A stretch of 64,000 bases of DNA from an uncultured Gammaproteobacteria bacterium (lineage in GTDB: Bacteria > Pseudomonadota > Gammaproteobacteria > GCA-001735895): assembly GCA_947259485.1 (NCBI GenBank), contig CAMYLU010000013.1:25065-89064 (forward strand), written 5' to 3'. Below the pieces are notes generated by a model. The model did no database searches. It was not told the origin of the DNA and saw only the letters and a list, made by a program, of their open reading frames with translations. Within the stretch, counting starts at the first letter, position 1; each line of letters starts with the position of its first letter. Shown here in pieces: positions 4,438 to 63,196 of this stretch. A program made the position numbers and the translations under genes.

Positions 4438-4453
4438 TATTGAAACGGTTCCT

Positions 4454-6428: not shown

Positions 6429-6434
6429 TCTCTG

Positions 6435-7367: not shown

Positions 7368-7370
7368 CAG

Positions 7371-10205: not shown

Positions 10206-10223
10206 GATGACCTGTAACCTGCT

Positions 10224-22046: not shown

Positions 22047-23075
22047 ATGAATAAAGCCGGAAGTCTCCTGAAAATCCCGGTTTTGATGATAGTACTCGCA
22101 TTGTTGCTGCCAGCCGCCAATGCCAGCGAAACCCGTGGCAAGATTACCGGCGGCGTATTGCACGAGCCCCCTGCCTGGTTTAAAAAGAGTTTCCTCGAGA
22201 TCGCAGACGATGTTGACGACGCCAATGAAGCTGGCAAGCACGTGTTGCTTTTTTTCGAGCTCAATGGCTGTCCCTACTGCGACCGCATGCTGGAAGAGTC
22301 CTTCGAAGCCGAGCCCCTGAGCAGTTATATTCAGGCCAATTTCGATACCATCGCGATCAATATCCAGGGCGATCGCGAAATCGCTTTTAACGAAGAAATC
22401 TCGGTTACCGAAAAAGAGCTGGGCGAGATCCTGAAGGTTTACTCGACACCAGCCCTGCTGTTCCTCGACGCTGATAATAAAACCATCGTACGCGTTAACG
22501 GCTACCGTGCACCCGAACGCTTTAAGCTGGTACTCGAATTCGTCGCTACCCGGTCGTACCAGACGACCAACCTGGCGGATTACCTGCAGGCCAAACACGA
22601 CAGGAATGTTTACCAGCTGCGCGCAAATTCACTGTTCAGCGAAGTGACCGATCTTTCAAGCGTCGAGGGTCCGTTAATGGTTATTTTCGAAGATGGAAGT
22701 TGCTACGATTGCAACGAGTTTCATGATGGCATTCTGGCGCACAAGCAGGTGCGCGAAGAAATCGCGCCGTTTACTATCGTGCGCCTCGATGCCGATTCAA
22801 ATGCAGCGATCAAGGATGTCTATGGCAACGCAACAACGCCCGCCGAACTGGCCAGCAAACATGAAATGATATACCGCCCGGGGGTACTGGTTTTCGATGA
22901 TGGAAACCTGGTACGGCGCCACGACAGCCTGACTTTCCCCCATCATTTCAAGGAAAGCATGCGCTTCGTCGCCGGCGGGTTTTACCAGCAAACCGACTAC
23001 CGCAACTATTCCCTGCAACGCACCGAGGAATTGCTCGCCAACGGCGTTGTCATCGACCTCGGTCGCCCTCAGTAA
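22047..23075 (+). CDS. Secreted thioredoxin-fold protein with two CxxC motifs (tandem thioredoxin-like domains)
   Basis: Start at MNKAGSLLKIPVLMIVLALLLPAANA (signal peptide), with GAGGA 7 nt upstream. ..HVLLFFELNGCPYCDRM.. (CPYC) and ..MVIFEDGSCYDCNEF.. (CYDC). The antisense ORF 21981..22598 is rejected. Confidence 0.7.
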   Translation: MNKAGSLLKIPVLMIVLALLLPAANASETRGKITGGVLHEPPAWFKKSFLEIADDVDDANEAGKHVLLFFELNGCPYCDRMLEESFEAEPLSSYIQANFDTIAINIQGDREIAFNEEISVTEKELGEILKVYSTPALLFLDADNKTIVRVNGYRAPERFKLVLEFVATRSYQTTNLADYLQAKHDRNVYQLRANSLFSEVTDLSSVEGPLMVIFEDGSCYDCNEFHDGILAHKQVREEIAPFTIVRLDADSNAAIKDVYGNATTPAELASKHEMIYRPGVLVFDDGNLVRRHDSLTFPHHFKESMRFVAGGFYQQTDYRNYSLQRTEELLANGVVIDLGRPQ

Positions 23076-23178
23076 CAGACTGTGCTGGTTAAAACCTTCC
23101 TCCGCAAGCTTCGTTATTCGAGGAACCCGAACGAAGGCTGAATCTGGAAGAAATCAATCCGCTTACTATACTCGGTGC

Positions 23179-25758: not shown

Positions 25759-25849
25759 AAACTATCCCTTGGGCTAGTCCGTCGGATAACAGGCTTTGTC
25801 AGTCACTCGAATTAAATCGGCTGCCTAACGTTAGCTGATCTTCAGCCCA

Positions 25850-26845
25850 TCAGGCTGCGGCGTTGCCGCCTGACTCTGTCTGCTGCTCGCCGTTGGCGAC
25901 AATACCGAGCTTGTGGAATAAATCCTGGTCCAGATTTTCATCCGGATTCGGCGTGGTCAGCAGCGTATCGCCATAAAAAATCGAATTGGCGCCAGCGAGA
26001 AAACACAGCGCCTGCAATTCTTCGCTCATCGCGGTGCGACCCGCTGAAAGACGGACCACGGATGCCGGCATCATGATGCGCGCGACCGCGATAGTGCGCA
26101 CAAAGTCGATCGGATCGAGTTCGTCGGTTCCATATAGCGGCGTATTCTCAACCTGCACCAGCAGGTTGATCGGTACGCTTTGCGGATGTTCCGGCAGGTT
26201 GGCAAGCTGCTGCAGAAGCGCGGCGCGATCCTTATCGGTTTCACCCATACCGATAATGCCGCCACAGCAAACGTTGATGTCTTCGGCGCGCAGGTTCTCG
26301 AGAGTATCGAGACGATCCTGGTAGGTCCTCGTGGTAATGATTTCCTGGTAATACTCGGGCGAGGTATCGAGGTTGTGATTATAGTAATCGAGCCCGGCCA
26401 GTTTCAGTTTGCGCGTCTGTTCACGGGTCAGCATGCCAAGGGTCACACAGGTTTCCATACCGAGATCCTTGACCAGGCTGATCATTTCGATCACCTTTTC
26501 GAGATTCTTGTCGGTGGGATTGCGCCACGCTGCGCCCATGCAGAAGCGTGTTGCACCGTTTTGTTTGGCATTCATCGCGGCGCTGCGCACATCATCGAGC
26601 GGCAACAGGCGTTCGCGTTCGAGCCCTGTGTCGTACTTTGCGCTTTGCGGACAATAGGCACAGTCCTCCGGGCAGGCACCGGTTTTAATGCTCAGCAAGG
26701 TGCTGATTTGCACCGCGTTGGGATCGAAATTAGCGCGGTGCATGGTTTGCGCCCGGAACAACAAATCATTGAAAGGCTGTTCGAAAAGGGTTTTAATTTG
26801 ATCGAGCGTCCAGTCGTGGCGGATGGATTGCACTGCATCGGTCAT
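25850..26845 (-). CDS. bioB: Biotin synthase
   Basis: 331 aa radical-SAM protein with ..[11 protein letters not shown].. Cys triad and conserved BioB C-terminal half. Confidence 0.93.
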
Positions 26846-33289: not shown

Positions 33290-34714
33290 ATGGGCGAGGA
33301 AATTCAAAAAACGCACTTTGAGCAGGCCGACTTCGATCGTTTCCAGGTACGCCTGGAACAGGAAACCGAGGTGGTGCGTTCGCTGTTCGCAAAACGGCAG
33401 TTCGACAATTCGAGTCGTAAACTCGGCTACGAGCTCGAACTTTGCCTGGCCGACGCCGACGGGCATCCGAGCAAAAACAATATCGAAATTATCGAGGCCA
33501 CCGGAAACCCGTTGTTCACTTCCGAACTCGCCAGGTTCAACATGGAGATCAACGGAAACCCGTTTCCTTATGAAAGCAGCGTTTTTAACCGGGTCGAAGC
33601 CGACCTGAACGACCTGTTTCAACAGGCTGAAGCCTGCGCACATAAATTTGATACCCAGATCGGCATGTTCGGTGTATTCCCGAGCGTTACACCTGAGCAC
33701 CTGAATCCCGACGGTTACATGACCGAGTTACATCGGTATAACCAGCTCAATCAGCAATTGCTAAACATGCGCGGACAATCAATCCGTCTGCATCTCGAAG
33801 GTGACGATATCCTCAAGGTCGAAAAGGACGACGTCATGCTCGAAGCACTCGCGACTTCGCTGCAGATTCACCTGCAGGTACCATTTGATGAAATCGTCCC
33901 GACTTACCATGCCGGGTTGTGGTCGAGCATGCTGGTGCTGGGCGCGACTGCGAATTCACCGCTGGTGCTCGGCAAGTGCTGTTGGCACGAATCGCGCATC
34001 GGCATCTTCAAGCAAGCGGTCGATACCCGCAATCCCCAGGAGATCGAGGATCAAATCATTCCCCGGGTCCATTTAGGCAAGCGCTACATCGATTCGCTGC
34101 TTGACCTGTTCGAAGACAATTTTTATTACAGCCCGATCCTGCCGGAAGTACTGGAACGACCCGTTGAAGATCTGCACCACCTGTCTCTGCACAATGGCAC
34201 CATCTGGCGCTGGGTGCGCCCGATCATCGCGCGCAACACGGCGGGCGAGTATCACCTGCGCCTGGAACTGCGCGTAGCGCCGTCGGGTCCAACCCTGATC
34301 GATACGCTCGCCAACATCGTGTTTTATGTAGGTCTGACCGAAGGCCTGAAATCGCAGGGTGATGACCTGACCAGAGTTCCTTACGAAAACCTTGAAACCG
34401 ATTTTTACCGTGCCGCGCGCAAGGGCCTTAATGCCGAGGTACACTGGACCGATGGTGAGGTCCTTCCCCTGAAACAGGTCTTACTCGAACGCGCGTTACC
34501 ATTAGCACGGTCATATTTCAAAAAGGCCGGGATCGAAGATACCGAGCGCTGGCTCGATGTAATCAAGGCCCGGGTAGAACGAGAAGCCACCGGTTCGCGC
34601 TGGATACTTCGTCACTGGAAACAGTTCGGCGATAGCGCCCGCCTGGTATGCGATTACATCGAACAGGCTCGCACCAACCAACCGGTCCACCTGTGGCAGG
34701 ACCCTGGAACATGA
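33290..34714 (+). CDS. Glutamate--cysteine ligase family 2 (GCS2 / carboxylate-amine ligase) protein
   Basis: 474 aa. ..SRKLGYELELCL.. and overall architecture of plant-type and GCS2 gamma-glutamyl ligases. The exact substrate cannot be inferred. Confidence 0.65.
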   Translation: MGEEIQKTHFEQADFDRFQVRLEQETEVVRSLFAKRQFDNSSRKLGYELELCLADADGHPSKNNIEIIEATGNPLFTSELARFNMEINGNPFPYESSVFNRVEADLNDLFQQAEACAHKFDTQIGMFGVFPSVTPEHLNPDGYMTELHRYNQLNQQLLNMRGQSIRLHLEGDDILKVEKDDVMLEALATSLQIHLQVPFDEIVPTYHAGLWSSMLVLGATANSPLVLGKCCWHESRIGIFKQAVDTRNPQEIEDQIIPRVHLGKRYIDSLLDLFEDNFYYSPILPEVLERPVEDLHHLSLHNGTIWRWVRPIIARNTAGEYHLRLELRVAPSGPTLIDTLANIVFYVGLTEGLKSQGDDLTRVPYENLETDFYRAARKGLNAEVHWTDGEVLPLKQVLLERALPLARSYFKKAGIEDTERWLDVIKARVEREATGSRWILRHWKQFGDSARLVCDYIEQARTNQPVHLWQDPGT

Positions 34715-35730
34715 TAGAAAATTTTGACCGCTTGCACGGTCTGCCAGACGGCTTTCTCGACATCAGCACCGCAAACATCCGTAGCCTGTTCCCCAATCCA
34801 ACGCTGATTCAGCTGGACGGAAAGGATCCGAATTTTCTGTTCATTTCGATCCTGTTACACGGCAACGAGTATACCGGGCTCAAGGTAATGCAACAGGTGC
34901 TGGCCGAGCACGCGCATGACCTGCCGCGTTCGATGCTGTTGTTTATCGGTAATGTACGCGCGGCCGAGGCAAACCTCCGCTATTTACCCGACCAGGTGGA
35001 CTACAACCGCTGCTGGCCCGGCAGCCACCTGGAACCGAACGCGACTTCTCAGATGATGCAGCGCGTGGTCGAGATTGCGCACGGATTACCCCTGTTTGCG
35101 GCGATCGATATACACAATAACACCGGCAAAAATCCGCATTATGCCTGTATTGCCGACCCCAACCTGAAAAACCAGAACCTGGCGGCAAGATTCAATCGGG
35201 TGGCGATGATATTCCTGCACAAGGGTGTGTGCTCGATGGCGTTTGATAATATCTGCCCGGCGGTTACGCTGGAATGCGGCTTGCCCGGGGATCCCAAGGG
35301 TATCGAGCATGCCCGCCGTTTCGTCGAAGGCATGCTGACCCTGGACAAGTTACCAGACACCAAACCGACCCGCCACGCGCTGCACCTGGTCGAATCACAC
35401 CTGACCTTGAATATCCCCGAGCACGTCAGTTTCGAGTTTGACCCGGATGCCGATGCCGACCTGCGCTTCGATAACGATATCGAAGACCGTAACTTTACCC
35501 TGATCGACCCACACCAGGTATTTGGCTATACCCGCGTCGCGCGCCCGCTATCAATTACCGATGCGGACGGACATGACGTTACCGATGAAATTATGCGCGT
35601 CGAGGAAGGCAAGATTTATCTGAACAATACCTTGATGCCGGCCATGCTGACACGTGACAAGCTGGTGATACGCCAGGACTGCCTGTGCCATTTAATGCAG
35701 GATTACATCGCCCACGAGGTTGAACTGTAG
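34711..35730 (+). CDS. Succinylglutamate desuccinylase / aspartoacylase (AstE/AspA) family zinc deacylase
   Basis: Start at MIENFDRLHG.., with ATGA overlap on the GCS2 stop. ..FISILLHGNEYTG.. zinc-binding HxxE motif of the AstE/AspA-M14-like family. The listed 34648 start is an upstream extension. Confidence 0.72.
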   Translation: MIENFDRLHGLPDGFLDISTANIRSLFPNPTLIQLDGKDPNFLFISILLHGNEYTGLKVMQQVLAEHAHDLPRSMLLFIGNVRAAEANLRYLPDQVDYNRCWPGSHLEPNATSQMMQRVVEIAHGLPLFAAIDIHNNTGKNPHYACIADPNLKNQNLAARFNRVAMIFLHKGVCSMAFDNICPAVTLECGLPGDPKGIEHARRFVEGMLTLDKLPDTKPTRHALHLVESHLTLNIPEHVSFEFDPDADADLRFDNDIEDRNFTLIDPHQVFGYTRVARPLSITDADGHDVTDEIMRVEEGKIYLNNTLMPAMLTRDKLVIRQDCLCHLMQDYIAHEVEL

Positions 35731-35802
35731 CAGTTCGAGGTCCCAGGCCTGCGCTTACCCACTGACCGGGCACAGAGTTATACTTCCCACCCCGCGGGTA
35801 GA

Positions 35803-36543
35803 TTAGAAGAAAAAGTATCCGCCCAAATTGAAGGACAAAATCGATTCATTATCTACGAAATCTTCGACATCAAACAAATTAAAAACTTCGGCTCTGAGAC
35901 TGAAGTGCTGATTAAGCATAATCTCGGCCCCAAGACCTAGTAAAAACCCGTTACTATTCTCGCTTGCTCTATCAAATGGTCCGCTTAAAGTAGTATCGGC
36001 AAAATAAATTCCACCCTGGCCAAACAGATTAAGCCGCGATTCGTTATTCCTCGAGCTATTGACCTTTAGTACAAGATTGATAGTGTCAACTTCAATGTCG
36101 ATATCGGTCAAACTCGTTACTTCCGACTCCCCGGAACTGAAAAAAGACAGCTCATAGCCTAAACGACTGTTCTCGGGACGATACCCAAACCGAAAAATCG
36201 ATGCATCGCCATCCTCGATATCATCATAATCAAATTCAGACTTTCCTACGCTGACACCAAAATATGCAGATCCCGCCAGACCAACACCACCCGAATCAGT
36301 TGATCGATAACGCGCAGAGGAAGATCGATACCCGGGGTGGTAATAAGGATCGTGATAATGATAGGGATAGTGGTAATGATGACGATCATGATCGCCACCG
36401 TCATTTCTCGGTGTAGTTATCTTTTCGTATTCCGGCGTGCTTTTTAATTTATCCCCATATTCGGAGCTACTTCCAGCAAAGCATGGAAGACTTAATATTG
36501 GAAACATAAAAACTATCAAACAGCGGAGATCGACAGGCTTCAT
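35803..36543 (-). CDS. Outer-membrane beta-barrel protein with a His/Tyr-rich N-terminal extension
   Basis: Start at MKPVDLRCLIVFMFPILSLPCFA (signal peptide). HDRHHYHYPYHYHDPYYHPGYR tract. Alternating amphipathic beta-strands and C-terminal ..GGYFFF typical of OMP barrels. Low GC. Confidence 0.62.
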   Translation of the reverse strand: MKPVDLRCLIVFMFPILSLPCFAGSSSEYGDKLKSTPEYEKITTPRNDGGDHDRHHYHYPYHYHDPYYHPGYRSSSARYRSTDSGGVGLAGSAYFGVSVGKSEFDYDDIEDGDASIFRFGYRPENSRLGYELSFFSSGESEVTSLTDIDIEVDTINLVLKVNSSRNNESRLNLFGQGGIYFADTTLSGPFDRASENSNGFLLGLGAEIMLNQHFSLRAEVFNLFDVEDFVDNESILSFNLGGYFFF

Positions 36544-36688
36544 GTAATTAACCGCTGGCCCCAGGGCACCCACTTTGACTGAACAGACCTGACTATTAGC
36601 AACATACCGCTAATTGAATCATGGGTTCTGATCTGGCTTACTGATGCCAGTCAATCTTTAGCAATAACTTAAATTGCCTTTACATAAA

Positions 36689-36712
36689 ATCGAGAAAGCA
36701 GACGCTCAGATT
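36689..36712 (-). repeat. Island repeat family, short copy R1 (reverse orientation)
   Basis: CGAGAAAGCAGACGCTCAGA is the reverse complement of the GAGCGTCTGCTT..CTCG core seen in R2-R8. Confidence 0.4.
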
Positions 36713-36804
36713 TTATCGATCAATTGAAACCGCAACCCAAAGGAGACGCCCATACGTGTCATATTCACGTCAAAACAAGATTTTTTCCTGGGCAAATTTT
36801 CAGG

Positions 36805-37779
36805 CTACTCTTTTACACAATGGTAATAGCTATTCGATATCGTTTCCCAGTTCTCTTTCGAAAATGGAACAGAACTTACATAACCCGGGAGGCAGGCGGT
36901 TGAAATATACTTTCTCGAGGATAAGCCCGGACTGAAGCGTTCTTCGGGCTTTATTTTAGCTTCAATTACCGGCCCGGTATCGGCTTGAAACCGAATAGAT
37001 ATTGTTTCACCGCAAGAATTATCGACCCAGAGATCGTCTCCCTTGAAGTTCCAGTCCGAGCAATGCTCCATGTGCGGTGACAGATGCTCTGTCGGGCCCG
37101 GGCACAGCCCATAAAACAGCGCCTTCGTTAAAAAAAATGACGTTCTAGAATGAAGTTGCAACAACTCGGGATAATCGTCAGCAAATGCGTCTATTGACGC
37201 AATCAAAGTCCGAGATTCGGCATCTCTCTCAATACAGGGATAATTGGGTATGTAGTCCGACTCCGATGGAAACATCAGATCCATCACGAGTTGTGTATAG
37301 CCCTGAAACAGTCCATACGCCCTGTCGTTAAGTTCCCAGTCAATGGTTCGCATCTTGACCTCAAGATTAAACCCCTCGCAATAGGAACTGCTGACCTGAC
37401 TATTCGGCGTGCATTTTCCAACAATCTCGGCCAAGTCCTGATCATGCTGTTTCTGTGTTTCGTAGTCACAATCTTCACAGGTTTGCTGGAGATTTTGAAT
37501 CTTTCGCCGTGCGGCCATTATGCCGGAGCAAAACGATAGGTCTGTATTATTGACAGATTCACACGCCGTGACAACTCGCCAGACGTACGACACCCCATCG
37601 ATGTAACCTTCACAAAATTCTCTCTTGTTCGTATCTATCGATTTACACCATCTCAGAAACTCTGCCGAGGACTTAGGTCCTAAGCCCTCTACTGAAGTTT
37701 GGGCAAAAGATGACTGAAAATAAAAGCCACCCACGCCGATCAACAGTATGGCAAACAGACCTATAAAGTAACGATACAT
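36805..37779 (-). CDS. Hypothetical secreted cysteine-rich protein (about 20 Cys)
   Basis: 324 aa. Signal or TM anchor MYRYFIGLFAILLIGVGGFYF. Many paired cysteines (CEGYIDG, CESVNN, CEDCDYE..). Low GC. No homolog recognised. Confidence 0.5.
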   Translation of the reverse strand: MYRYFIGLFAILLIGVGGFYFQSSFAQTSVEGLGPKSSAEFLRWCKSIDTNKREFCEGYIDGVSYVWRVVTACESVNNTDLSFCSGIMAARRKIQNLQQTCEDCDYETQKQHDQDLAEIVGKCTPNSQVSSSYCEGFNLEVKMRTIDWELNDRAYGLFQGYTQLVMDLMFPSESDYIPNYPCIERDAESRTLIASIDAFADDYPELLQLHSRTSFFLTKALFYGLCPGPTEHLSPHMEHCSDWNFKGDDLWVDNSCGETISIRFQADTGPVIEAKIKPEERFSPGLSSRKYISTACLPGYVSSVPFSKENWETISNSYYHCVKE

Positions 37780-37840
37780 ACCAGCTAGTATGAGCTAACC
37801 TGATTGACGCAATGGTGATCAGTATCAATCATTTCGAAAT

Positions 37841-37916
37841 CAGCGGCGAATGACTGTTGTTGGCCGAAGATTGCCTCCCACCAGAACTTTATGAGCGTCT
37901 CCTTTGGAGAAAACAG
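37841..37916 (+). repeat. Island repeat family, copy R2
   Basis: CAGCGGCGAATGACTGTTGTTGGCCGAAGATTGCCTCCCACCAGAACTTTATGAGCGTCTCCTTTGGAGAAAACAG. It shares the TTGGCCGAAGNTTGCCTCC and GAGCGTCT.CTT..GAGAAA blocks with R4, R5, R6 and R7. Confidence 0.6.
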
Positions 37917-38030
37917 ATTCTAAATCACTTACACCTGTAGCCGAGATCGACCCATAGCTGTTCTGATAACAACCAATCCAATTGGTGGCCTTAGTCTAAG
38001 CACAGCTTGAAAACACCAGGACTAATTTAA

Positions 38031-38759
38031 TTAGGCGTCCAACCGCTTGCCCAGTTGAAGCAGAAGCGTAGCACCGTCTCCCTGCCACGCGGCTCCGTGC
38101 ATGCAGGCCAGGACACGCGGGGAAGTGGCGGCGAGCTTCTCTGCTAGTTCGCGGACCTGCCGAGTTTGCGAGAAATAGTCCAGCCCGCTGCGCATCGCTT
38201 CACTTGTCTCGAGGATGTCTTGCGTGGTGAGTGGCTCATGCTCATGCCCGCCTTGGGTAAACAAATCACCGCAGAACAGCGTTTTTGTCGAAGTCTCGAA
38301 AAGGTGACCACATTCCCAGGCGTGCGGTAAGTGCGGGGTATCGATCCATCGCACGATATGGCTTCCCAAGGAAAGCTCCTCACCGTCGCTCAGGGCTCTA
38401 GCCGGCCGTGAGGCGATATCATCCACGCTGACCATCTTGGCGATATTGCTGCATAGCGGCTCAGCCTTTGGCGCCTGTTCCAGAAACTCATTGAGTGAGC
38501 CGCATTCATCAGACTCATAGTGGGAAAAGCCTATATACCGTAAGTTCTTTACCGGCATCACGGTTGCAATCGCCGCCTGCACGAGGGGAAACATCTTGCG
38601 CGGACCCGTGTGATAGAGCAGCGGGGAATCATCCGCAACAAGATATTGGTTGAAGGTAAATCCGCCGGGTATCACGGATGGCGGTACTGCTGTGCTAATG
38701 CGATAAATACCGTTAGCGATTTCGTCGATTCTTGTGCCGTCTTTCTTATTGCTTTTCAT
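38031..38759 (-). CDS. MBL-fold metallo-hydrolase
   Basis: 242 aa. ..YIGFSHYESDECG.. (HxHxDH-like metal site variant) and later His and Asp ligands. Lactamase_B topology. Confidence 0.72.
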   Translation of the reverse strand: MKSNKKDGTRIDEIANGIYRISTAVPPSVIPGGFTFNQYLVADDSPLLYHTGPRKMFPLVQAAIATVMPVKNLRYIGFSHYESDECGSLNEFLEQAPKAEPLCSNIAKMVSVDDIASRPARALSDGEELSLGSHIVRWIDTPHLPHAWECGHLFETSTKTLFCGDLFTQGGHEHEPLTTQDILETSEAMRSGLDYFSQTRQVRELAEKLAATSPRVLACMHGAAWQGDGATLLLQLGKRLDA

Positions 38760-38988
38760 TTTTTCGGTTGCTCCTTGAAATTGATGAAGCCGGAAATTTA
38801 ACTGGCCCTAAGATGTGCGGATGAATAGTAGCTACCCAGACCTGGTGTGTTCAACATTCGATTCGTGCAACGGTCTGACTTTTTAGTCATTAGTAACGCT
38901 CCTCTATTCTCTAACCGAGAATATATTTACCAACGCATACAAACCATAGAGTACTCAATAGAAGAGCTTTTTGTAAATTATGAAATAA

Positions 38989-39058
38989 ATGAGCGTCCGT
39001 TCATGGCCGAAGCACGACCCTGATGTTGCAAATTTGAGTGTCCGCTTACGAGAAACCG
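38989..39058 (+). repeat. Island repeat family, copy R3
   Basis: GAGCGTCCGTTCATGGCCGAAG...GAGTGTCCGCTTACGAGAAACC. Confidence 0.55.
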
Positions 39059-39143
39059 GCAACTATCCGATAGGTCACCGATGCCGGCCGGGTGGCCTCG
39101 ATTAGACAGTAATTTATGAGACGAGTATGATTGCCGATATCGA

Positions 39144-40313
39144 TTGCCACCAGCGTCGATTTTGATCATGACCTTTGCCGAAGCTGCAGATTCAACAGGT
39201 AACTCGACCGCCGAAACTCGGTCGATCCTGCCGAATGGTATAACTGCGTTTTTTGGTGCTGGCGCGTCGATACTGGTGTGCTACGGCAAGACATTCCTGC
39301 TCGCGATTCCCGCGCTGTTCACGGGTAGCATGCTCGAATTCAATCCGCATTTTCAGGCTGTGCTGATGTGGGGGTTTGGAGCGATCGCCGTATACGGGCT
39401 AATTCAAGACCGCAGGATTCACGGCAGTCTGGTGCCGACGGTACTCGGTGTCGTCTCGGTGGTCACCATAATCGCGACACTCTACGGTTATTACCTGGTT
39501 GCGGCCGAATCATTCGGCTATGTCTTGCTTTTGTCTGCTGCGTTCACCAACCAAATTATGATTCTCAACTTTCTCAACCGCGAGGTGAAAGTCAAGGCGC
39601 TGGAAGTCGAGGATCTAAATTCCGGTCTCGAGGCACGGGTACGGGAGCAGGTTAACGAAATTGACCGCCTGAACCAGCTCAGGCGTTTTCTGTCGCCCGA
39701 GGTCGCAAACCTGGTTACCGAGCAGCAGGAAAAAACCATGCTGCAAAGCCATCGTGCTTATATCGCCACAGTATTTTGTGACTTGCGCGGGTTCACCTCT
39801 TTTTCAGTCAACATGGAACCCGAGGAGGTCATGAATGTGCTGCAGGCCTTCCACGAAAGCCTGGGGCAGCTGGTGGCCGACTATCAGGGTACCATCGACC
39901 ACCGTGCGGGCGACGGCATGATGGTGTTTTTCAACGATCCTCTGCCTTGCGAAGAACCAGTATTGAGGGCGGTAGAACTTGCGTTGAGTATGCGCGAGCG
40001 CTTCAATGAAATGAACCGTGACTGGCACAGGCGCGGCTACGAGCTCGGATTTGGCGTTGGCATCGCCAGTGGCTATGCCACGCTCGGAATTGTCGGCTTT
40101 GAAGGCCGTTACGACTACACTGCAAACGGCAATGCGGTCAACCTCTGCGCACGCCTGAGTGACGAAGCCGGGGATGGGCAGATATTGATCGATCACAAGA
40201 CTTTCGTCGAGATCGAGGATAAAGACGAGGTGGAAGCCCTTGGCGAACTGGAACTGAAAGGTTTCGCTAGCAAAATCCGGGTCTACGATTTACTCGGTCT
40301 GCACGTTAGTTGA
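39144..40313 (+). CDS. Membrane-anchored class III adenylate/guanylate cyclase
   Basis: 389 aa. N-terminal 4-TM domain, coiled-coil linker, and C-terminal CHD cyclase domain with ..VFCDLRGFTSFS.. and ..HRAGDGMMVFF.. metal- and substrate-binding motifs. Confidence 0.8.
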   Translation: MPPASILIMTFAEAADSTGNSTAETRSILPNGITAFFGAGASILVCYGKTFLLAIPALFTGSMLEFNPHFQAVLMWGFGAIAVYGLIQDRRIHGSLVPTVLGVVSVVTIIATLYGYYLVAAESFGYVLLLSAAFTNQIMILNFLNREVKVKALEVEDLNSGLEARVREQVNEIDRLNQLRRFLSPEVANLVTEQQEKTMLQSHRAYIATVFCDLRGFTSFSVNMEPEEVMNVLQAFHESLGQLVADYQGTIDHRAGDGMMVFFNDPLPCEEPVLRAVELALSMRERFNEMNRDWHRRGYELGFGVGIASGYATLGIVGFEGRYDYTANGNAVNLCARLSDEAGDGQILIDHKTFVEIEDKDEVEALGELELKGFASKIRVYDLLGLHVS

Positions 40314-40342
40314 TCCTTTTCTATCTATGGCAAACGCGATTG

Positions 40343-40421
40343 AGACGTGCGTCCGCTATTGGCCCGAGATTGCCTCCTGGACTCAAGATATAAGCGTCAG
40401 CTATTGGGAAAGCTGACGCAT
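40343..40421 (+). repeat. Island repeat family, copy R4
   Basis: GAGACGTGCGTCCGCTATTGGCCCGAGATTGCCTCCTGGACTCAAGATATAAGCGTCAGCTATTGGGAAAGCTGACGC, between convergent genes. Confidence 0.55.
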
Positions 40422-40444
40422 AAATTTCTTGGGTAGGCAGCGAG

Positions 40445-41641
40445 CTAATCACGGATTATCGGTATTCGCGGAACATGGGTAATGATCTCGGGCGCATCAA
40501 CAGTGATGATTGCCTGTTCGGCGACTGCCATCGAGCGACCAGATGCGCGGTCGTTCAGAATCATGTGCGTGAAAAACGACATGTTTTCCTCGAGCACCAG
40601 TGGGTTACCTTCGAATATTAATGGTTGCTCCATCCAGGTCGGCGGACAGGTAGCCCCCATGGTGTATCCGCATACGGTCAAAACCGCATCCTTCTCGCCG
40701 TTGTCCTCGAGTGAACTGCGGTAGGCATCGTAAATCTCGCCAACCGTTGTTCCCGGACGCAGAATCGATTGCACCGCGTCCAGTGCGATAACACTGGTCT
40801 CATGCATTTTCAGATGACGGTCGTTAATATCGGGGCCGGTAAGCACTACGCACATGCTCGCCGCGTGATAGTGCCGATAAGCCACCCCCAGTTCCAGTGT
40901 AACCTGGTCATTGTTAAGCACATGTTTGCGTTTCGAGGTGTATCGTAAATTCAGCGCTGATTTACCGCTGCCAAGTGGTGGAATATGTGCCGGCAGGTCA
41001 GCGCCGAGTCGAAACAGGCTGTCGTAAAAAGTAGCGTATATATCCCCTTCGTAGGCACCGGAAAAGGTGGCGTCGATTGTCTTATCCATGACGATATCCA
41101 TAATTTCACCGGCCTTGCGCAGATAGGTAAGCTCCTGAGGGCTTTTGATTAGACGTAGTTGGCGGATGAAATCCGGTGCAATTATCAATTCACACCAGTT
41201 TTCGAGCTCCGCCTGAATTTCCAGAAACAGGCGCGGCGTCAGGCCCATGGTATCAACCTGGATTCCAATTCTTTTGCCCTGCATTCCCAGTGAATTTAAC
41301 ATTTCCCTGATCTGTCCCGCACGCGAAGCATCCTGCGAATCCGGTGCAATACGAATATCTTCACAGATAGACGAATAAGAGGCATTACCCAGATCTGCCG
41401 GACGTGCCAAATGAGTCAACTGCCCATCGGTGCCGAGGAACATGCAGCCGAAAATGGTGAAACCATCTGAATCGTATCCGGTCAGCCAGTACATGTCCTC
41501 AAACTTGAATAGCAGGACGCCATCCAGTTCCTGGGCTGTCATCTGTTCGCGCGCACGTTGCTGTCGCTCGACAAATTCTTCTCGGCTGAAATGAATATTG
41601 ATGTCGTCCACTGAGTCCCCCCCGGTGTCACAGAAAATCAA
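40445..41641 (-). CDS. M24-family metallopeptidase (creatinase / Xaa-Pro aminopeptidase / ectoine-hydrolase-like)
   Basis: 398 aa. Creatinase_N-like N-terminal domain (..FSREEFVERQQRAREQM..DGVLL..) and pita-bread C-terminal domain with conserved Asp, His and Glu metal ligands. Confidence 0.8.
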   Translation of the reverse strand: MIFCDTGGDSVDDINIHFSREEFVERQQRAREQMTAQELDGVLLFKFEDMYWLTGYDSDGFTIFGCMFLGTDGQLTHLARPADLGNASYSSICEDIRIAPDSQDASRAGQIREMLNSLGMQGKRIGIQVDTMGLTPRLFLEIQAELENWCELIIAPDFIRQLRLIKSPQELTYLRKAGEIMDIVMDKTIDATFSGAYEGDIYATFYDSLFRLGADLPAHIPPLGSGKSALNLRYTSKRKHVLNNDQVTLELGVAYRHYHAASMCVVLTGPDINDRHLKMHETSVIALDAVQSILRPGTTVGEIYDAYRSSLEDNGEKDAVLTVCGYTMGATCPPTWMEQPLIFEGNPLVLEENMSFFTHMILNDRASGRSMAVAEQAIITVDAPEIITHVPRIPIIRD

Positions 41642-41805
41642 ATGTACGAACTATTCCTTTAAACACAAGTAAAAGGCAGACTAAGGCAGGCGGTGGATAG
41701 TGAAGTATCAAAGCAGCGCCTGGCGGGAAGTAGCCGTGGTCATAGCTGCAAACAGGGCGACAGTTAACTAATTCCGAGGACTTTTCCAATCGACTTAGGC
41801 GAGGT

Positions 41806-41930
41806 TCGCGGCTGTTATTGGCCGAAGGTTGCCTCCTGCCAAGGATTTACGAGCGTCTGCTTACGAGAAAGCTGCCGCTCAAAATCCAATAATCAGCGGC
41901 GATTTACGGCCCGAAGCGCTCATACAACTA
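41806..41930 (+). repeat. Island repeat family, long copy R5
   Basis: GCGGCTGTTATTGGCCGAAGGTTGCCTCCTGCCAAGGATTTACGAGCGTCTGCTTACGAGAAAGCTGCCGCTCAAAATCCAATAATCAGCGGCGATTTACGGCCCGAAGCGCTCAT. Internally imperfectly palindromic. Confidence 0.6.
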
Positions 41931-41977
41931 GCAATAAGCTCCGCATGCCGAAACTAGGAAGATCAATCCGTACGACT

Positions 41978-42742
41978 TCAAATCTGGTTATATAAGCTTT
42001 GACCTTTTGAGAACTTTCTCGAAATACTCAATGAAATCGATTCGATGCCATACTCCAGGCGCTGAATTGCCTCCGCTTTTTGAATACTAATAGATTCAAG
42101 AGATTCAAATCCGTGCTCCTCTGGCGATTCAATTTTTATGCCTGGAAGCGACAGATCCATAGCCCAACCGTACTGGACAGTACCCGCATATATCACCTTT
42201 GTACTCACTGCGGAGACCAGGCGAAGCGCAACCGTCTCGTTGGGGCCGAAACCGTCATCATAGCGCTTGTCAAATGTGCTTGATACGTATCCAATAAACA
42301 CAGGAGCAATGTCAAGATAGGCATCGGCAACTTCACTATCAAATCCCAGGTAGTTGTCTTTTAAATGAAGACTATTTTTTCGGTCTGCTGGCAGATCGAT
42401 CACTTTAAAACCGCTTTCCTCAAGATGCCGCTTCAGAAATTTCTGCATGGTACTATTGAAACCCTCAAACTCCAGTTCAGATTCCCAATAACCTGGCGTA
42501 TCGGGGATTTCAAGCAACGCAATTGTTTTAACAGATATAAGCTCGTCCGCATTGATTTCAGTTTCAGCTATGGGAGGTTGGATTCCCGTATGAGCTATGG
42601 AAGGTTGGCCTGGCCCACTCGAGAGGTAGTCCAAAGCGGCCCACTCGGCACCTACTACGACAACAGCTGGTGCCAATGCCTCACAACCAGACAACCAGAT
42701 GGCAGTAAAAATCGATAAGGCTATGCGAAAACGTTGTTTCAT
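41978..42742 (-). CDS. Hypothetical lipoprotein
   Basis: 254 aa with lipobox ..AIWLSGC. No recognised domain. Low GC. Confidence 0.55.
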   Translation of the reverse strand: MKQRFRIALSIFTAIWLSGCEALAPAVVVVGAEWAALDYLSSGPGQPSIAHTGIQPPIAETEINADELISVKTIALLEIPDTPGYWESELEFEGFNSTMQKFLKRHLEESGFKVIDLPADRKNSLHLKDNYLGFDSEVADAYLDIAPVFIGYVSSTFDKRYDDGFGPNETVALRLVSAVSTKVIYAGTVQYGWAMDLSLPGIKIESPEEHGFESLESISIQKAEAIQRLEYGIESISLSISRKFSKGQSLYNQI

Positions 42743-42831
42743 GGTCTGCCTTCAGGTTATAGATTTTTGGGGCGTATTGATCGTAACAATCCATATCTGT
42801 TTTAGCCAGGTGTGATTCGATAAAGCAACAT

Positions 42832-42926
42832 CGAGCGTCTGCTTCTGGCCGTTTATCGCCGCTGCAAACTGATTTACGAGCGTCTGCTATGGGGAAGCCA
42901 GGAAAGGTCCCAGCGGACGTCTCCTA
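42832..42926 (+). repeat. Island repeat family, copy R6 (abuts the integrase remnant)
   Basis: GAGCGTCTGCTTCTGGCCGTTTATCGCCGCTGCAAACTGATTTACGAGCGTCTGCTATGGGGAAGCC...CCCAGCGGACGTCTCC. Confidence 0.55.
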
Positions 42927-42937
42927 GCATTTCCCGC

Positions 42938-43305
42938 CTATATCTCGGTCTGTTCCGCCATTTCCAAAGCATCATCCACTTCGATGCCGAGATACTTGAC
43001 CGTGCTTTCCATCTTCGTGTGGCCCAATAATATCCGGGCAGCCCGGTCTTTTGTTGCATCACCATGGCCCTTCTGGAGACCGTCGCACCGTGGGTGACGT
43101 CACGCACTCGAATCTTGACCAGGTCATAGCTTCTGAGCTTGCTATCGATGGCGAGACTGAATAACGCCAGGTCTCGAATTTATTTTGAAATTTGCAGTCG
43201 GATTCGGATTGCCCAGATTTCTTTGGGTTTTAGTGGTGGTTTCTGACCGGTTCGCTTGCCCTTGTTGCAGGGATTCTTGGTTGTTATATGGCGAACGTGG
43301 TTCAT
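42938..43305 (-). pseudogene. Decayed small tyrosine recombinase/integrase gene (frameshifted and internally deleted)
   Basis: Three minus-strand frames in series. Frame 1 gives MNHVRHITTKNPCNKGKRTGQKPPLKPKEIWAIRIRLQISK*. Frame 2 gives ..RDLALFSLAIDSKLRSYDLVKIRVRDVTHGATVSRRAMVMQQKTG... Frame 3 gives ..ILLGHTKMESTVKYLGIEVDDALEMAEQTEI*. These match the N-terminal, core-start and C-terminal signatures of ~190-aa phage-type integrases, but about 100 aa of the catalytic core is missing. Confidence 0.6.
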
Positions 43306-43483
43306 CTTGATTCCTTCGGTTGTTGGTCGGAATCAAATTATGGCCTTCAGCTTCCCCGAGACTGATCCTCAATATCTCAGTAGCGGTGTGAAATAAAGTA
43401 ACTCTAAATTTTGAAAGGGCCATGTAATAATAAAATCTCGGTCACCCGAGACCGACTGATAACATGAAGCGCACTGAACATAT

Positions 43484-44143
43484 ATGGATATTCAAATCCC
43501 ATCCGGTACTACTTCTGATACGAGGCGTTTTCGTATCGCTTTTATTGTCGCATTTTCATTCGCGCTATTGCTTTGGGCATTGCATCTTGCCGAGTACCTT
43601 AGCGGATTCGATTTGACTCAATTCGGTGTTTATCCGCGCCGTGCGCTCGGACTTATAGGGATTCTCTGTGCACCCTTTATCCATGTCTCTGTGTCCCACC
43701 TATTCGCCAACACCCCGCCGATTATTGTGATTGGCACAATGCTGCTCTACGGATACCCCCGAGCGTCTAAAGTGTTTTTACCGGTCGTCTATCTTGGCAG
43801 TGGCATCGCAGTGTGGTTATTTGCCCGAGAGGCCTATCATATCGGCGCAAGCGGACTCGCTTTCGGTATGTTGTTCTTTGTCTTTACGATTGGGGCACTT
43901 CGTTGGGAGCGGCGTACCATAGCCATCTCACTGTTGGTATTTTTTCTATACGGAGGCATGATTTCGGGTGTGATACCGGGTGAGCAGGAAATTTCTTTCG
44001 AGTCGCATTTAAGTGGTGCGCTGATCGGGATATTGCTGGCCTTCTTATTGCGACATCGTGATCCAGAGCCGCCGCGTAAACAATACAGTTGGGAGCAAGA
44101 GGAGGCGGAATCCGAAGATTACGACTGTCCAGACCGGGATTAG
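43484..44143 (+). CDS. Rhomboid-family intramembrane serine protease (candidate rhombosortase)
   Basis: 219 aa, 6 TM. Catalytic Ser in GASGLAFGML (GxSG) and His in ..ESHLSGALIGILLA... Its small size is in the range of rhombosortases. Confidence 0.72.
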   Translation: MDIQIPSGTTSDTRRFRIAFIVAFSFALLLWALHLAEYLSGFDLTQFGVYPRRALGLIGILCAPFIHVSVSHLFANTPPIIVIGTMLLYGYPRASKVFLPVVYLGSGIAVWLFAREAYHIGASGLAFGMLFFVFTIGALRWERRTIAISLLVFFLYGGMISGVIPGEQEISFESHLSGALIGILLAFLLRHRDPEPPRKQYSWEQEEAESEDYDCPDRD

Positions 44144-44157
44144 ATGAATTTGCGCGA

Positions 44158-44225
44158 TTATTTTCTCCAAAGCAGACACTCAAATGTGCTTAATCAGCGG
44201 CTGAGAACGGACGTCCAGCAATGGG
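44158..44225 (-). repeat. Island repeat family, copy R7 (reverse orientation)
   Basis: TTTTCTCCAAAGCAGACACTC is the reverse complement of GAGTGTCTGCTTTGGAGAAAA (compare R2 and R3), followed by CAGCGGCTGAGAACGGACGTCCAGC. Confidence 0.5.
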
Positions 44226-44604
44226 ATGCCAGTACTTCTTTGGGTAAAACTTGTAATTCAACTGCTAACTTACCGGAACAATGTTGCCCGGTGAAAAAGG
44301 GGGCCTCGCGCTAATCCATACATCGGGCAGTAACTTGATATAACTCAATACTTGGACAGTTTGTCCAAACTAGAATCGAGTTTTTTTGTTCCAACTGTTG
44401 TAAATGTCATCACCTGTCCCGGCTTTATGATCAGTGACAAAGGTGATCGATGGAAACGTCCCCGCATCAGGCAATCGATTCTTATTCACCGATAGCGCTG
44501 AATTGGCGATACAGAAAATATAGATGGCGCTTGAATGCCATTTTCAACCCATAGGGACCTTTCAATCCAGGTAATGCTCATAAATTTTTTTAAGGGTTCT
44601 AAAC

Positions 44605-45504
44605 ATGTCCAAATCAACCAGTATCGATCAGGTAGTTCCCAAGGCTATCCGAACCAAAGTTGCCAAAGCGAAGAAAGGTGACATTCTTGGTTGGGAATAC
44701 CCTCATAAAAAAAAGATGAGTCGCATGAAATACGAATCGATGAAACTCGATTTGCAGATTGAACTTCTCAAAATGGAAAAATGGATCAAGGACAGCGGAA
44801 AGAAGGTGGTGATGTTGTTCGAGGGCCGCGATGCCGGGGGAAAAGGTGGAACGATCAAGCGCTTCACTGAACACATGAACCCACGAGGCGCCAGGGTGGT
44901 AGCTCTTGAGAAACCCAATAGAACTGAGCTCAGGCAATGGTATTTTCAGCGCTACATCCAACAATTGCCAATCGAAGGTGAAATCGTTTTCTTCGATCGG
45001 TCATGGTACAACCGCGCCGTCGTCGAACCGGTGATGGGCTTTTGTAAACCGGCAGATACCCGTCTTTTCCTGAAACATGCGCCCATCCTGGAAAAAATGC
45101 TGGTTGAAAACGGCTTCCTTTTTTACAAATTCTGGTTTTCGGTGAGTCGCCCTGAACAATTTCGTCGCTTCAAGTCACGGGAAGAGGACAGGTTAAAACA
45201 ATGGAAGCTGAGCCCAGTCGACTTACAATCTCTGAGCAAGTGGAACGAGTATTCCAAATCGATCGCCAGAATGTTCGAGTACACGGACACCCCCGAATCA
45301 CCCTGGCTAGTTGTGCGTTCCGATGACAAGAAACGGGCGAGACTCAACTGCATTATGCATGTCCTGAACTCACTGCCCTATTCAAACAAGAACAAAAAAC
45401 TCGTGGTCGCACCCGATCCCCGAATCATAGGGCCGGCGAAAACCATGTATGAGTCATTCGCAGAAAAGCAATCCATGAAAAAAGGAACGGTAACTCATAA
45501 GTAG
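44605..45504 (+). CDS. Polyphosphate kinase 2 (PPK2) family nucleotide phosphotransferase
   Basis: 299 aa. Walker A-like ..MLFEGRDAGGKGGTIKR.. and PPK2 core ..FDRSWYNR.., with the lid region. Confidence 0.85.
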   Translation: MSKSTSIDQVVPKAIRTKVAKAKKGDILGWEYPHKKKMSRMKYESMKLDLQIELLKMEKWIKDSGKKVVMLFEGRDAGGKGGTIKRFTEHMNPRGARVVALEKPNRTELRQWYFQRYIQQLPIEGEIVFFDRSWYNRAVVEPVMGFCKPADTRLFLKHAPILEKMLVENGFLFYKFWFSVSRPEQFRRFKSREEDRLKQWKLSPVDLQSLSKWNEYSKSIARMFEYTDTPESPWLVVRSDDKKRARLNCIMHVLNSLPYSNKNKKLVVAPDPRIIGPAKTMYESFAEKQSMKKGTVTHK

Positions 45505-45512
45505 AGTAAATT

Positions 45513-45546
45513 ATTAAGCCACCTCAAATAAAATGGCTTTTTTATG
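45513..45546 (+). terminator. Possible weak rho-independent terminator after the PPK2 gene
   Basis: AAGCCA-cctcaaataaaa-TGGCTT followed by TTTTTAT. The stem is short. Confidence 0.3.
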
Positions 45547-45588
45547 TGCGTCTCTTGTGGGTCGTTAAACGACCCCTAAATAAACTCC

Positions 45589-45625
45589 CCGAGCGTCCGC
45601 TTTCGAGAAGAATCTCCGATTTGAT
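45589..45625 (+). repeat. Island repeat family, short copy R8, near the right island boundary
   Basis: GAGCGTCCGCTTTCGAGAAGAATCTCCG. Confidence 0.45.
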
Positions 45626-45771
45626 AACAACCTTTCCAGGGGTGGAATTGAACTGACGTCAGGACTGCCTGCGCAATATTGAAAAGAATTAACAGTCCTA
45701 CGAAGTCGAGCTTGCAAATTAAGTCTGGATACCACGGTCAGGTGCATCGGGTTGAACCGCGGGTTGGTTGA

Positions 45772-46302
45772 CTAGCTGAGTTCACCACGTGCCGGGTAGT
45801 CTTTTTCGAGCGCAAACTTGAGGGCACCGATAATTTCGCGAAAATGTGGGCGCGCAAACGGCATGGTGCTGATCTGGGCCCAGTAAAGCGTGTTGTCCGG
45901 GCGCACAATGAATAATCCCGGTTCACTAAATTCAGCAGGTTCTTCGATTCCGATCGAGGTCAGGCCGCGCCCCGCGGAACGATGCAGTCCCCAGTCACGG
46001 GCCTGTTCTGTGCTGACGCCGTAACCAATCGCGAGATTACCGAGTCCCCAATCCTCGCGCGCCTGTTCGGCCCGCTCACGATCATCACCACTTAAGACCA
46101 GGATGGAAACACCGATATCGGCAAAATCACCGGCCAGCTTGTCGAGTTCACCTACATACTTGCTGCAGATAGGGCAATGCAGGCCGCGGTAAAACACGAC
46201 CATGGTGAAGTTTTCAGGGCTTTGGTCGGCAAGCGACCAGGGGCCGTCGAGGGTGTCGACTTCCAGTGCGGGTACTGGTTGGCGGGTTTTTAGCACATTC
46301 AT
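45772..46302 (-). CDS. AhpC/TSA (peroxiredoxin-like) thioredoxin-fold protein with a CxxC motif
   Basis: 176 aa, ..MVVFYRGLHCPICSKYVGEL.. redoxin fold. Confidence 0.72.
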   Translation of the reverse strand: MNVLKTRQPVPALEVDTLDGPWSLADQSPENFTMVVFYRGLHCPICSKYVGELDKLAGDFADIGVSILVLSGDDRERAEQAREDWGLGNLAIGYGVSTEQARDWGLHRSAGRGLTSIGIEEPAEFSEPGLFIVRPDNTLYWAQISTMPFARPHFREIIGALKFALEKDYPARGELS

Positions 46303-46391
46303 TAAGGACTCCTGTTATTTTGATACGTGTCAATATGGCTAGGTGGCAACAGTGTTAGCTTTTTTCATACAAAAAACAACAGGATAGGGAT

Positions 46392-62314: not shown

Positions 62315-63196
62315 CTAGCCTGTTTCAAAATCGATCCATAAGGGCTGATGATCAGACCCTTGTGCCGTTTCATCAACCCAGGATGCGCCGGCACTAGCGA
62401 TAAGATCTGCGGTGACGAAACAATAATCGAGGCGTTCGCTTTGCTCGTCTTCGGGACGCCCCGGATTCGGATGCCAGGTCATAACATTACTGCCTGGATT
62501 TGTCCGGGCCCAGATATCCGTTAGCAATGGGTCGTTATGCCCCGCATTTGCGGTAGCAATAATTGCATACTCGGAACTTTCGGGATGCATATTGAAGTCG
62601 CCCAGGACCACCGCGCTCTGTGGCATCGGCGGTTGTGCTACGCCGGCGGTCCAATCCCTTTCAGCCCCCGCCGTGACCGGGCCGGTCCAGGCACCGCCCT
62701 CGGACGGCGAATTCTGCACCAGCTTGATCACGAAATTTGCCTGCTGCTGGCGTTCCTCGCTTGAAACCGAACCGAAATGTAAATTGTAGATGCGGAGTGC
62801 CCCGGCTGGTGTCTCAATCACCCCTTCAAGCACACCCATCTGCATATTGAATCCAGACTCGATAGCCAGGCGTGGCAATGGATAATATCGCTTGCTCAAG
62901 ATCGGCCAACGACTGAGCAACATCTGCCCATGCTCAATACGTCGATTGAGAATCGCACCATCCGCGCGCTTCTCGCTACCATCGATATCGAAGGCCGCAT
63001 CAAAAACCCAGTAGTAATCGGGCAACAATGCGGCAATATCTTCGGGTTGAGAAGGTCCGTCCGGTGGCCCGTAATTTCGCTCGACCTCCTGCAGGGCAAC
63101 AATGTCGGCACCCTGAACCGAGTCAATCAGGCGTTGCAGATCGTACCGATTGTCCTTACCGATGGCATAGTGAATGTTATAAGTGACAATTTTCAT
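62315..63196 (-). CDS. Endonuclease/exonuclease/phosphatase (EEP) family protein
   Basis: 293 aa. ..MKIVTYNIHY.. N-terminal motif, ..ALQEVE.. catalytic Glu, C-terminal ..GSDHQPL.. His. Confidence 0.8.
   Translation of the reverse strand: MKIVTYNIHYAIGKDNRYDLQRLIDSVQGADIVALQEVERNYGPPDGPSQPEDIAALLPDYYWVFDAAFDIDGSEKRADGAILNRRIEHGQMLLSRWPILSKRYYPLPRLAIESGFNMQMGVLEGVIETPAGALRIYNLHFGSVSSEERQQQANFVIKLVQNSPSEGGAWTGPVTAGAERDWTAGVAQPPMPQSAVVLGDFNMHPESSEYAIIATANAGHNDPLLTDIWARTNPGSNVMTWHPNPGRPEDEQSERLDYCFVTADLIASAGASWVDETAQGSDHQPLWIDFETG

Follow-up and report, generated by a model that had tools for sequence, protein, structure and literature searches.

The island at the AstE locus and the repeat E

The DNA analysed here, henceforth the window, is a stretch of 64,000 nucleotides (nt) from an uncultured Gammaproteobacteria bacterium (contig CAMYLU010000013.1), and it contains an island of genes separated by copies of a repeat that we named E. 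Comparison of its flanks with those of a related metagenome contig (L001) places the island at positions 35730-45632 (9.9 kb). On its left lies a gene of the AstE/AspA family (M14; 34711-35730, + strand), whose homologues at 70-95% identity carry PF24827, and on its right an AhpC/Redoxin (peroxiredoxin) gene (45772-46302, -); both belong to conserved flanks. A sequence-only reading had described an island of ten mostly low-GC genes at 35750-46350. The insertion is real and indeed low in GC (0.484, as against 0.539 in the rest of the window), but its extent had to be corrected and the peroxiredoxin gene assigned to the flank. The genes in between, read from left to right, are predicted to encode an outer-membrane beta-barrel protein (OMP; 35803-36573, -; PF13505, OMP_b-brl, 1.1e-9), a Cys-rich secreted protein (36805-37779, -; from its open reading frame (ORF) and translation, with only a sub-threshold Rap1a match), an ODP/metallo-beta-lactamase-fold (MBL) protein (38031-38759, -; PF19583, ODP/Lactamase_B, 7e-17), a membrane adenylate/guanylate cyclase (39144-40313, +; PF00211, Guanylate_cyc, 1e-17), an M24 peptidase with a Creatinase_N domain (40445-41641, -; Pfam, Peptidase_M24), a lipoprotein without a Pfam match (41978-42742, -; ORF and translation, lipobox LSGC), a tyrosine recombinase remnant (42941-43305, -; three-frame translation), a rhomboid protease (43484-44143, +; PF01694, 2.6e-18) and PPK2 (44605-45504, +; PF03976, 3e-94). 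Pfam thus bears out the earlier assignments of the OMP, MBL, cyclase, M24, rhomboid and PPK2 genes, and gives a weak Phage_integrase match (PF00589 at 0.0025) for the integrase.

Copies of E were located with an nhmmer profile of a unit of ~65 nt, which finds ten copies in the window: the eight named previously (R1-R8), whose positions hold up, the second arm of R5, and one at 63583(-). Seven of the nine gene-to-gene spaces of the island hold a detectable copy. The impression that nearly every space does so therefore stands with two exceptions, since no copy lies between the AstE junction and the OMP gene, and the integrase-rhomboid space has a decayed arm alone. With up to one mismatch allowed, the 11-nt box GAGCGTCTGCT is found seven times in 36.6-45.6 kb and once in the other 54 kb (shuffle expectation: mean 1.08, maximum 3).

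The copies differ in their state of preservation. R1 (36690-36758, -) is a weak unit (nhmmer E = 0.008) in which the boxes GGGCGTCTCCT and GAGCGTCTGCT are both present, 44 nt apart, while R2 (37850-37965, +; 1.2e-16) has an intact left arm and a decayed right arm. R3 (38992-39060, +; 2.8e-13) has a mid-block subtype in common with the related locus L005 at 17080, and R4 (40349-40420, +; nhmmer and fold) a perfect inner hairpin, GCGTCAGC/GCTGACGC. The sole complete two-armed copy in the window is R5 (41806-41925, +), made of units 41809(+) and 41859(-); 49 full elements from other genomes can be aligned with it, and its DNA fold has a free energy of -25.6 kcal/mol (z = -1.9). R6 (42834-42925, +; 1.8e-12) stands directly after the integrase stop codon, as the right-hand arm of an element that contains the integrase. 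The decayed left-hand arm of that element (43390-43465, -) is a weak call below the nhmmer threshold that aligns to the arm upstream of the integrase in L204 and to E left arms. R7 (44161-44215, -; 3.5e-8) is a single unit, and R8 (45548-45612, +; nhmmer), the terminal copy, is cut off at the element centre, where L023 has the full element.

The aligned window copies define the ~65-nt unit as an outer box GNGCGTCYGYT, TGGCCG, a mid block that is commonly AAGATTGCCTCC, ~14 variable nt, the inner box GAGCGTCTGCT and a tail TTnnGAGAAA. Two inverted units make up E, an asymmetric palindrome of ~125 nt whose arms consistently differ from each other. The sequence-only reading had called the copies partially palindromic; the unit and its inverted pairing are corrections to that reading. 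From 50 full-length copies (alignment A4) we derived the consensus T-GAGYGTCCGYT-nn-TGGCCGAAGATTGCCTCC-n14-GAGCGTCTSC-TTwsGAGAAAr-SwGACGCTC-n14-ATCAGCGGCGATnnnCGACCCA-nnn-CGGACRCTC-A, that is, an outer box GAGYGTCCGYT, the core TGGCCG, a mid block, an inner box hairpin, and an inverted arm ending in CGACCCA and CGGACRCTC.

Although 74.7% of the proposed inter-arm pairs can form in the E alignment, every measure of covariation equals its shuffled expectation, RNAalifold finds no consensus fold for the alignment, and R5 alone among the eight window copies forms a long extended hairpin. We conclude that E is conserved as sequence, not as structure. The attC architecture expected on folding and aligning the copies did not appear: RYYYAAC/GTTRRRY (R''/R') cores are absent from the alignment, and the recurrent triplets, GTT in the left arm and AAC in the right, are arranged inversely to those of attC. 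Nor does E belong to a known RNA family, the window having no Rfam match at the gathering threshold and five array loci none at E <= 1. A scan for promoters or terminators in E shows no consistent site. No direct repeats that could be target-site duplications are visible in the flanks of 50 elements, and solo outer-box palindromes, the pre-existing empty targets of a smaller element, were searched for without success.

Two further repeats occur next to E. Directly before the outer box of several cassettes with unrelated cargo (PPK2, PEP-CTERM) stands a terminator-like hairpin with a T-run (AAGCCAYCTC...GAGRTGGCTT TTTTT; window 45503-45545, L005 15330-15394, L010 ~11170-11215), which may be part of an extended form of E. 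A second, unrelated palindromic repeat, CTGTCATCCCGCGG...GATTCCGGCTTTCGCCGGAATGACAG, is present in arrays (L012 ~3170-3275; L021 ~4770-4860, -; L022; L031; L034 3440-3552) and abuts E where the outer box would be expected, at what we take to be the crossover junction. Its hairpins, TTCCSGC-n4-GCSGGAA, recall the neisserial dRS3 repeat.

The same locus is found in several states in relatives. AstE synteny is kept in L001, L005, L007 and L010, and the homology of the window to its relatives stops at 35729 and picks up again at 45633. In L001, which was reached through its identical AhpC/Redoxin protein, the flanks are 95.5% and 92.6% identical to those of the window, and the site holds 2.15 kb with two unrelated genes. 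The identical protein is encoded beside other cargo on all of L001-L004, and its gene directly adjoins AstE in L007-9, where the site is empty and 42 nt separate the two stop codons. L005 has eight other genes at this position and L010 yet another set. Immediately right of the island, at 45633-45725 (+), the terminal ~85 nt of AstE recur in decayed form, as shown by local alignment (z = 6.4, with none of 200 shuffles as good) and by multiple alignment with L001, L005 and L007; this remnant is also present in L001 and L005. Because a decayed AstE end lies on the far side of the island, the ancestral insertion must have entered the 3' end of AstE and brought a replacement end. Site-specific integration usually leaves such a displaced and replaced gene 3' end. 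The repeats are not tandem att sites copied from the AstE 3' end, as none aligns to AstE above shuffles and only the right-flank remnant does, and no tRNA or tmRNA gene that could serve as an integration target lies within the window. Elsewhere in the window, a stretch of lower GC (23000-26000; 0.48-0.49) has no E copy.

Polar arrays and their turnover

Many cassette arrays exist in an uncultured lineage of Gammaproteobacteria that abounds in environmental metagenomes, and the island is one of them. In a scan of one genome per species (GTDB representatives), E was found in 58 stretches from ~20 separately named Gammaproteobacteria metagenome-assembled genomes (MAGs), and in one MAG, JAOTXY01, no fewer than 17 contigs carry it. 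E is also present in at least 120 JGI metagenome stretches, and viral contigs gave no match. Most of the sequences are MAG or metagenome contigs, and the loci were gathered with an E pattern, which affects array density but neither the flank controls nor the polarity test. In 1.405 Mb of fetched array-rich loci there are 820 E units, versus none in 152,690 bp of conserved flank. At the AstE locus itself, the other islands carry E between unrelated genes, and the empty-site contigs and all flanks are free of it. The sequence-only reading had named as an alternative a family of repetitive extragenic palindromes (REP) or bacterial interspersed mosaic elements (BIME) dispersed through intergenic sites regardless of gene content, and the lack of any copy in the conserved flank refutes it.

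Units alternate with genes in nearly every fetched locus. The median spacing between elements is 1048 bp, and 91 of 137 intervals contain exactly one ORF of at least 90 amino acids (aa), in agreement with the earlier proposal of about one repeat per cassette and heterogeneous cargo. A cassette, then, is usually one gene plus one E copy. Arrays are polar with respect to the repeat: 253 of the 288 classified elements (88%) have the majority orientation of their own array, whereas the random expectation is 201 and the maximum in 5000 simulations 221. By contrast, the ORFs are oriented at random relative to E (78 co-oriented versus 101 opposed), so the mixed gene orientation seen in the window extends to the other arrays. 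The gene of a cassette probably has its own promoter.

Since the window holds the start of a second array at ~63.25 kb, an array in L047 lies at a further site and E is spread over many contigs of JAOTXY01, one genome carries several arrays. The second window array (63246-64000, with unit 63583-63637 on the - strand; nhmmer) runs off the window. It starts beyond an Exo_endo_phos gene (62315-63196), and other cargo occupies that site in L070/71, L072 and L074. In L047 (1-4390), an E array ends in a truncated FAA-hydrolase gene beside a homologue of window 4370-7988 (MurJ region); the counterpart in the window (3784-4398) is an intact FAA-hydrolase gene with no array. The L047 site seems to be a third point of insertion, once more within the 3' part of a gene. 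E copies also occur on contigs binned as Eudoraea sp. (L052, Bacteroidota) and Haliangium sp. (L064, myxobacterial), through either mis-binning or horizontal cassette transfer.

The cargo is heterogeneous yet not random. In the arrays, 148 ORFs match 171 Pfam families, the 25 most frequent of which include no recombinase or transposase family. Diverged paralogues recur across arrays, such as CadC/OmpR-type winged-helix regulators (19 ORFs in 15 loci), and so do adenylate/guanylate cyclases, M24/Creatinase_N peptidases, GFA, DUF4382, FHA and PEP-CTERM proteins; examples are found in L063 (830-3130), L070 (1410-2435 and 4163-5380) and L005 (9823-10857).

When relatives are compared, gene content changes cassette by cassette, as predicted by the sequence-only reading. 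A PPK2 cassette ~90% identical to that of the window is present in another array context in L023 (a contig of JAOTXY01), the block of homology beginning at window position 44215. An FHA gene recurs in different arrays (L005, L066, L069 and L051), and L005 and L018 share an OmpA-domain gene at 94% identity. Homology between cargo found in different arrays ends within E, and parts of E travel with the adjoining cargo. Of the 12 boundaries viewed, at least nine lie between the outer box and the TGGCCG core, or at the equivalent TGGGTCG core of the other arm. Two further cases come from closely similar contigs. L070 is 97% identical to the flank of the second window array over 9.2 kb and shares its first cassette, and the content then switches immediately 5' of TGGCCG; at this level of identity, L070 is probably conspecific with the window, and so probably is JAOTXY01, with 97% identity over 9.2 kb. 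L215 and L219, from a different organism, are 100% identical over 3416 nt, up to a point of divergence precisely between outer box and GGGC core. At junctions where the mid blocks differ, the shared identity amounts to ~6-19 nt. This is too short for efficient RecA-dependent exchange and therefore points to site-specific exchange, plus some homologous exchange, as the likely source of the sequence junctions.

A small tyrosine recombinase nested between the arms of E

The recombinase remnant of the island is interrupted by an in-frame stop and has lost the H-x-x-R region through an internal deletion, so this copy is inactive. It is 81% identical to an intact copy in L099 and belongs to a family of ~205-aa, catalytic-domain-only tyrosine recombinases, all homologues of which carry PF00589; intact copies keep R...H-x-x-R...Y, as read in the L099 and L141 translations. 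The family falls far below every NCBIfam cut-off, including that of the integron integrase model TIGR02249 (18.6 bits, cut-off 265), and has a weak NCBIfam match to 'tyrosine-type DNA invertase'. Searches with the remnant as query gave 475 plasmid records with the family, and a fuller query, reaching distant relatives, gave 1501. The family is also very abundant in metagenomes, mostly on short contigs: among homologues P0241-P0360, most contigs are 1-3 kb long and end shortly past the gene, a pattern to be expected of an element present in several copies or located at repeats that interrupt assembly. No other recombinase recurs in the arrays; this one is found in the window, L099 and L141.

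In three separate contexts (L204-213, L214 and L215-221), an intact integrase gene is nested between a unit(+) and a unit(-) whose arms align to the arms of E. The intact genes of L204 and L214 occupy positions 6001-6624 and 10001-10624 of their contigs. In L215-221 the arms enclose the integrase and two small genes, and the element adjoins an FAA_hydrolase-like gene. In L214 (1583-5607), phage terminase genes and a serine resolvase adjoin the E array that bears the integrase, and a link to a prophage or transfer agent is possible. The window has the same nested arrangement in decayed form, composed of R6, the remnant and the decayed arm (~42.83-43.47 kb), and R6 aligns to the arm downstream of the intact integrases in L204 and L141. 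Given this recurrent nesting, E is an integrase-less miniature of a ~1-kb element that has a recombinase gene between the same inverted arms.

The association of gene and site extends to distant relatives. For 12 of the 14 plasmid homologues, which come from Alpha-, Beta- and Gammaproteobacteria, a position weight matrix of E positions 1-22 has a significant match (p <= 0.05) no more than 250 nt from the gene, as against 0 of 28 control windows; in Thauera pTX1, the match to window R8 is 17/18 nt. Among the possibilities raised by the sequence-only reading, att sites of a recombinase-driven island come closest to the evidence.

A proposed cassette system resembling integrons

We propose, with a probability of about 0.58, that E and its cargo form a previously undescribed cassette system that is driven by the small tyrosine recombinase and behaves like an integron without being one. 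The recombinase would be supplied in trans from intact copies and would act on two E sites, the crossover, and with it the exact positions of cleavage, falling between the outer box and the TGGCCG core. From a co-oriented pair of E sites, a circle made of one gene and one E would be released, which could enter any other E; arrays formed in this way would be polar and would exchange their content one cassette at a time.

Several observations weigh against this proposal. Of the 12 breakpoints viewed, three map to other conserved blocks of E (model positions ~31, ~37-45 and ~45), so that the elements are mosaic and homologous exchange or gene conversion plays a part. The founding insertion must be explained in some other way, neither the AstE insertion point nor the empty AstE/AhpC site having an E-like box (p ~0.9). 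The integrase is rare in the sampled arrays (3 of ~190 loci), and with a dead copy in the window, a trans-acting one must be assumed. The link between recombinase and site appears as an association of sequences. A tyrosine recombinase site usually has as its core two inverted binding sites that flank a crossover region of 6-8 bp, and no such pair is recognisable at the junction. Finally, array density in the sampled loci is ascertained through the E pattern with which they were gathered, and mis-assembly at repeats is possible in material that consists mostly of MAG and metagenome contigs.

The proposed system has to be weighed against passive accumulation of a selfish palindrome, akin to REP doublets forming hairpins (REPINs) or to miniature inverted-repeat transposable elements (MITEs), that builds up in permissive, horizontally acquired regions and is shuffled by homologous recombination, the integrase being its own transposase-like gene or a hitch-hiker. 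E, as an inverted doublet of ~125 nt, is indeed REPIN-like (PMC3337134), and like REP sequences with their associated tyrosine transposases (RAYTs), it could form a hairpin of ~100-130 nt, is extragenic, persists across related species and would need an enzyme acting in trans. As in a pair of insertion sequence (IS) and MITE, E shares both complex ends, of ~65 nt each, with an autonomous-looking, enzyme-bearing element of ~1 kb. The mosaic elements with breakpoints in other conserved blocks, the lack of covariation expected of copies of a master sequence, and the presence of a second unrelated small palindromic repeat in the same arrays would all fit. Yet a selfish palindrome should not be confined to variable arrays, where most spaces are filled, while sparing the conserved flank, whose 152,690 bp comprise about a hundred intergenic spaces, nor should its orientation be uniform within arrays at the 88% level. 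Unlike mobile repeats of this kind, E is clustered at about one copy per gene, parts of it move between genomes with neighbouring cargo, breakpoints cluster where the shared identity is very short, and target-site duplications are not visible. E has no GTAG/CTAC head, and its associated gene encodes a small tyrosine recombinase instead of an HUH Y1 or DDE transposase. The fetched sequence gave no RAYT match better than E = 1.8, a weak argument, as the RayT query was approximate. Taken together, we consider passive accumulation unlikely.

The sequence-only reading took the island, with caution, for an integron-cassette-like array. Integrons and E arrays both have mostly single-gene cassettes, co-oriented imperfect palindromes of ~60-140 nt, heterogeneous cargo that turns over cassette-wise between close relatives, a likely tyrosine recombinase engine and a cassette boundary inside the repeat near one end. 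Organisation and behaviour were thus read correctly; identity with attC sites and integrons was not. A classical array detached from its integrase (a cluster of attC sites lacking integron integrases, CALIN), with unusually sequence-conserved attC sites and IntI encoded elsewhere, would account for co-oriented palindromes of ~125 nt between single genes and for strain-variable content, and the folded arms of E would pair with conserved mismatches and a bulge that loosely recall attC. In integrons, most cassette ORFs lack a promoter and follow the orientation of the array, and attC is conserved as structure rather than sequence. E arrays depart from this: cargo orientation is random; E is conserved in its four boxes and TGGCCG core, with neither structural covariation nor R''/R' cores and with GTT and AAC in the inverse arrangement; and a single window copy of eight folds as a long hairpin. 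The boundary lies ~13 nt inside one end, not in a terminal R' box, and several arrays per genome (at least two in the 64-kb window) are inserted into gene 3' ends, with no IntI and attI platform. That no intI was visible in the window also holds more widely. A tblastn search with an approximate IntI1 query gave one weak 57-aa match to the C-terminal part of a tyrosine recombinase in 1.25 Mb of mostly array-rich loci, and both ends of the complete arrays (window and L005) are housekeeping genes with no IntI there. The candidate recombinase of E has ~205 aa and is nested inside a copy of the site. We therefore regard a detached integron array as very improbable. Least probable of all is an inverton, in which the asymmetric interior of E would be flipped between its outer boxes by a tyrosine invertase of FimB/FimE size, with phase variation of the neighbouring genes as the result. 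The size and catalytic-domain-only make-up of the recombinase, its weak invertase match, the intergenic position of E with inverted repeats around an asymmetric interior, and the outer boxes that stay with their flanking genes while interiors differ could all be read in this way. However, 35 of 164 full elements have near-identical copies in other contigs, and all 35 show the native configuration with none inverted, at the level of contigs. The differing interiors are different sequences, not reverse complements, the elements are co-oriented within arrays, and E has no consistent promoter or terminator to be switched.

Two other kinds of tyrosine recombinase site invite comparison with the proposed cassette system. 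The pdif modules of Acinetobacter plasmids use 28-bp XerC/XerD sites in alternating orientation. Like E cassettes, they place genes in either orientation between short tyrosine recombinase sites, with the enzyme elsewhere and in varied contexts; E differs in being ~125 nt long, co-oriented, chromosomal and unrelated in sequence. In Tn4430-type transposons, the tyrosine recombinase TnpI acts on the IRS, a site of ~116 nt with four copies of one binding motif, which resembles E in length and number of motifs, and FimB and FimE resemble the E-associated recombinase in their similar size and catalytic-domain-only architecture. The motifs of E, however, are two direct and then two inverted copies. 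The IRS serves to resolve cointegrates and the Fim sites to invert a promoter; neither of these systems builds cassette arrays, and inversion was seen in 0 of 35 E elements.

Among systems that build arrays of single-gene cassettes through site-specific recombination, only integrons are, to our knowledge, well understood. A keyword search found no published description of arrays like those reported here, and the E string is in no paper, within an incomplete coverage of the literature. We tentatively suggest, and hold this to be somewhat short of an even chance, that E represents a second, independently evolved integron-like capture system, in which a recombinase residing inside its own four-box site moves gene-plus-miniature cassettes in trans, giving many polar, hypervariable arrays per genome and having single-site relatives on proteobacterial plasmids. 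A recombinase family so far annotated only as 'tyrosine-type recombinase/integrase' gains a candidate cognate site, and a compact recombinase with a defined site of ~22-125 nt could serve as a tool. If the proposal is true, cassette organisation of the flexible genome would have evolved more than once, with an unrelated site and a much smaller recombinase, and the system would explain the strain-level gene turnover in abundant uncultured Gammaproteobacteria.

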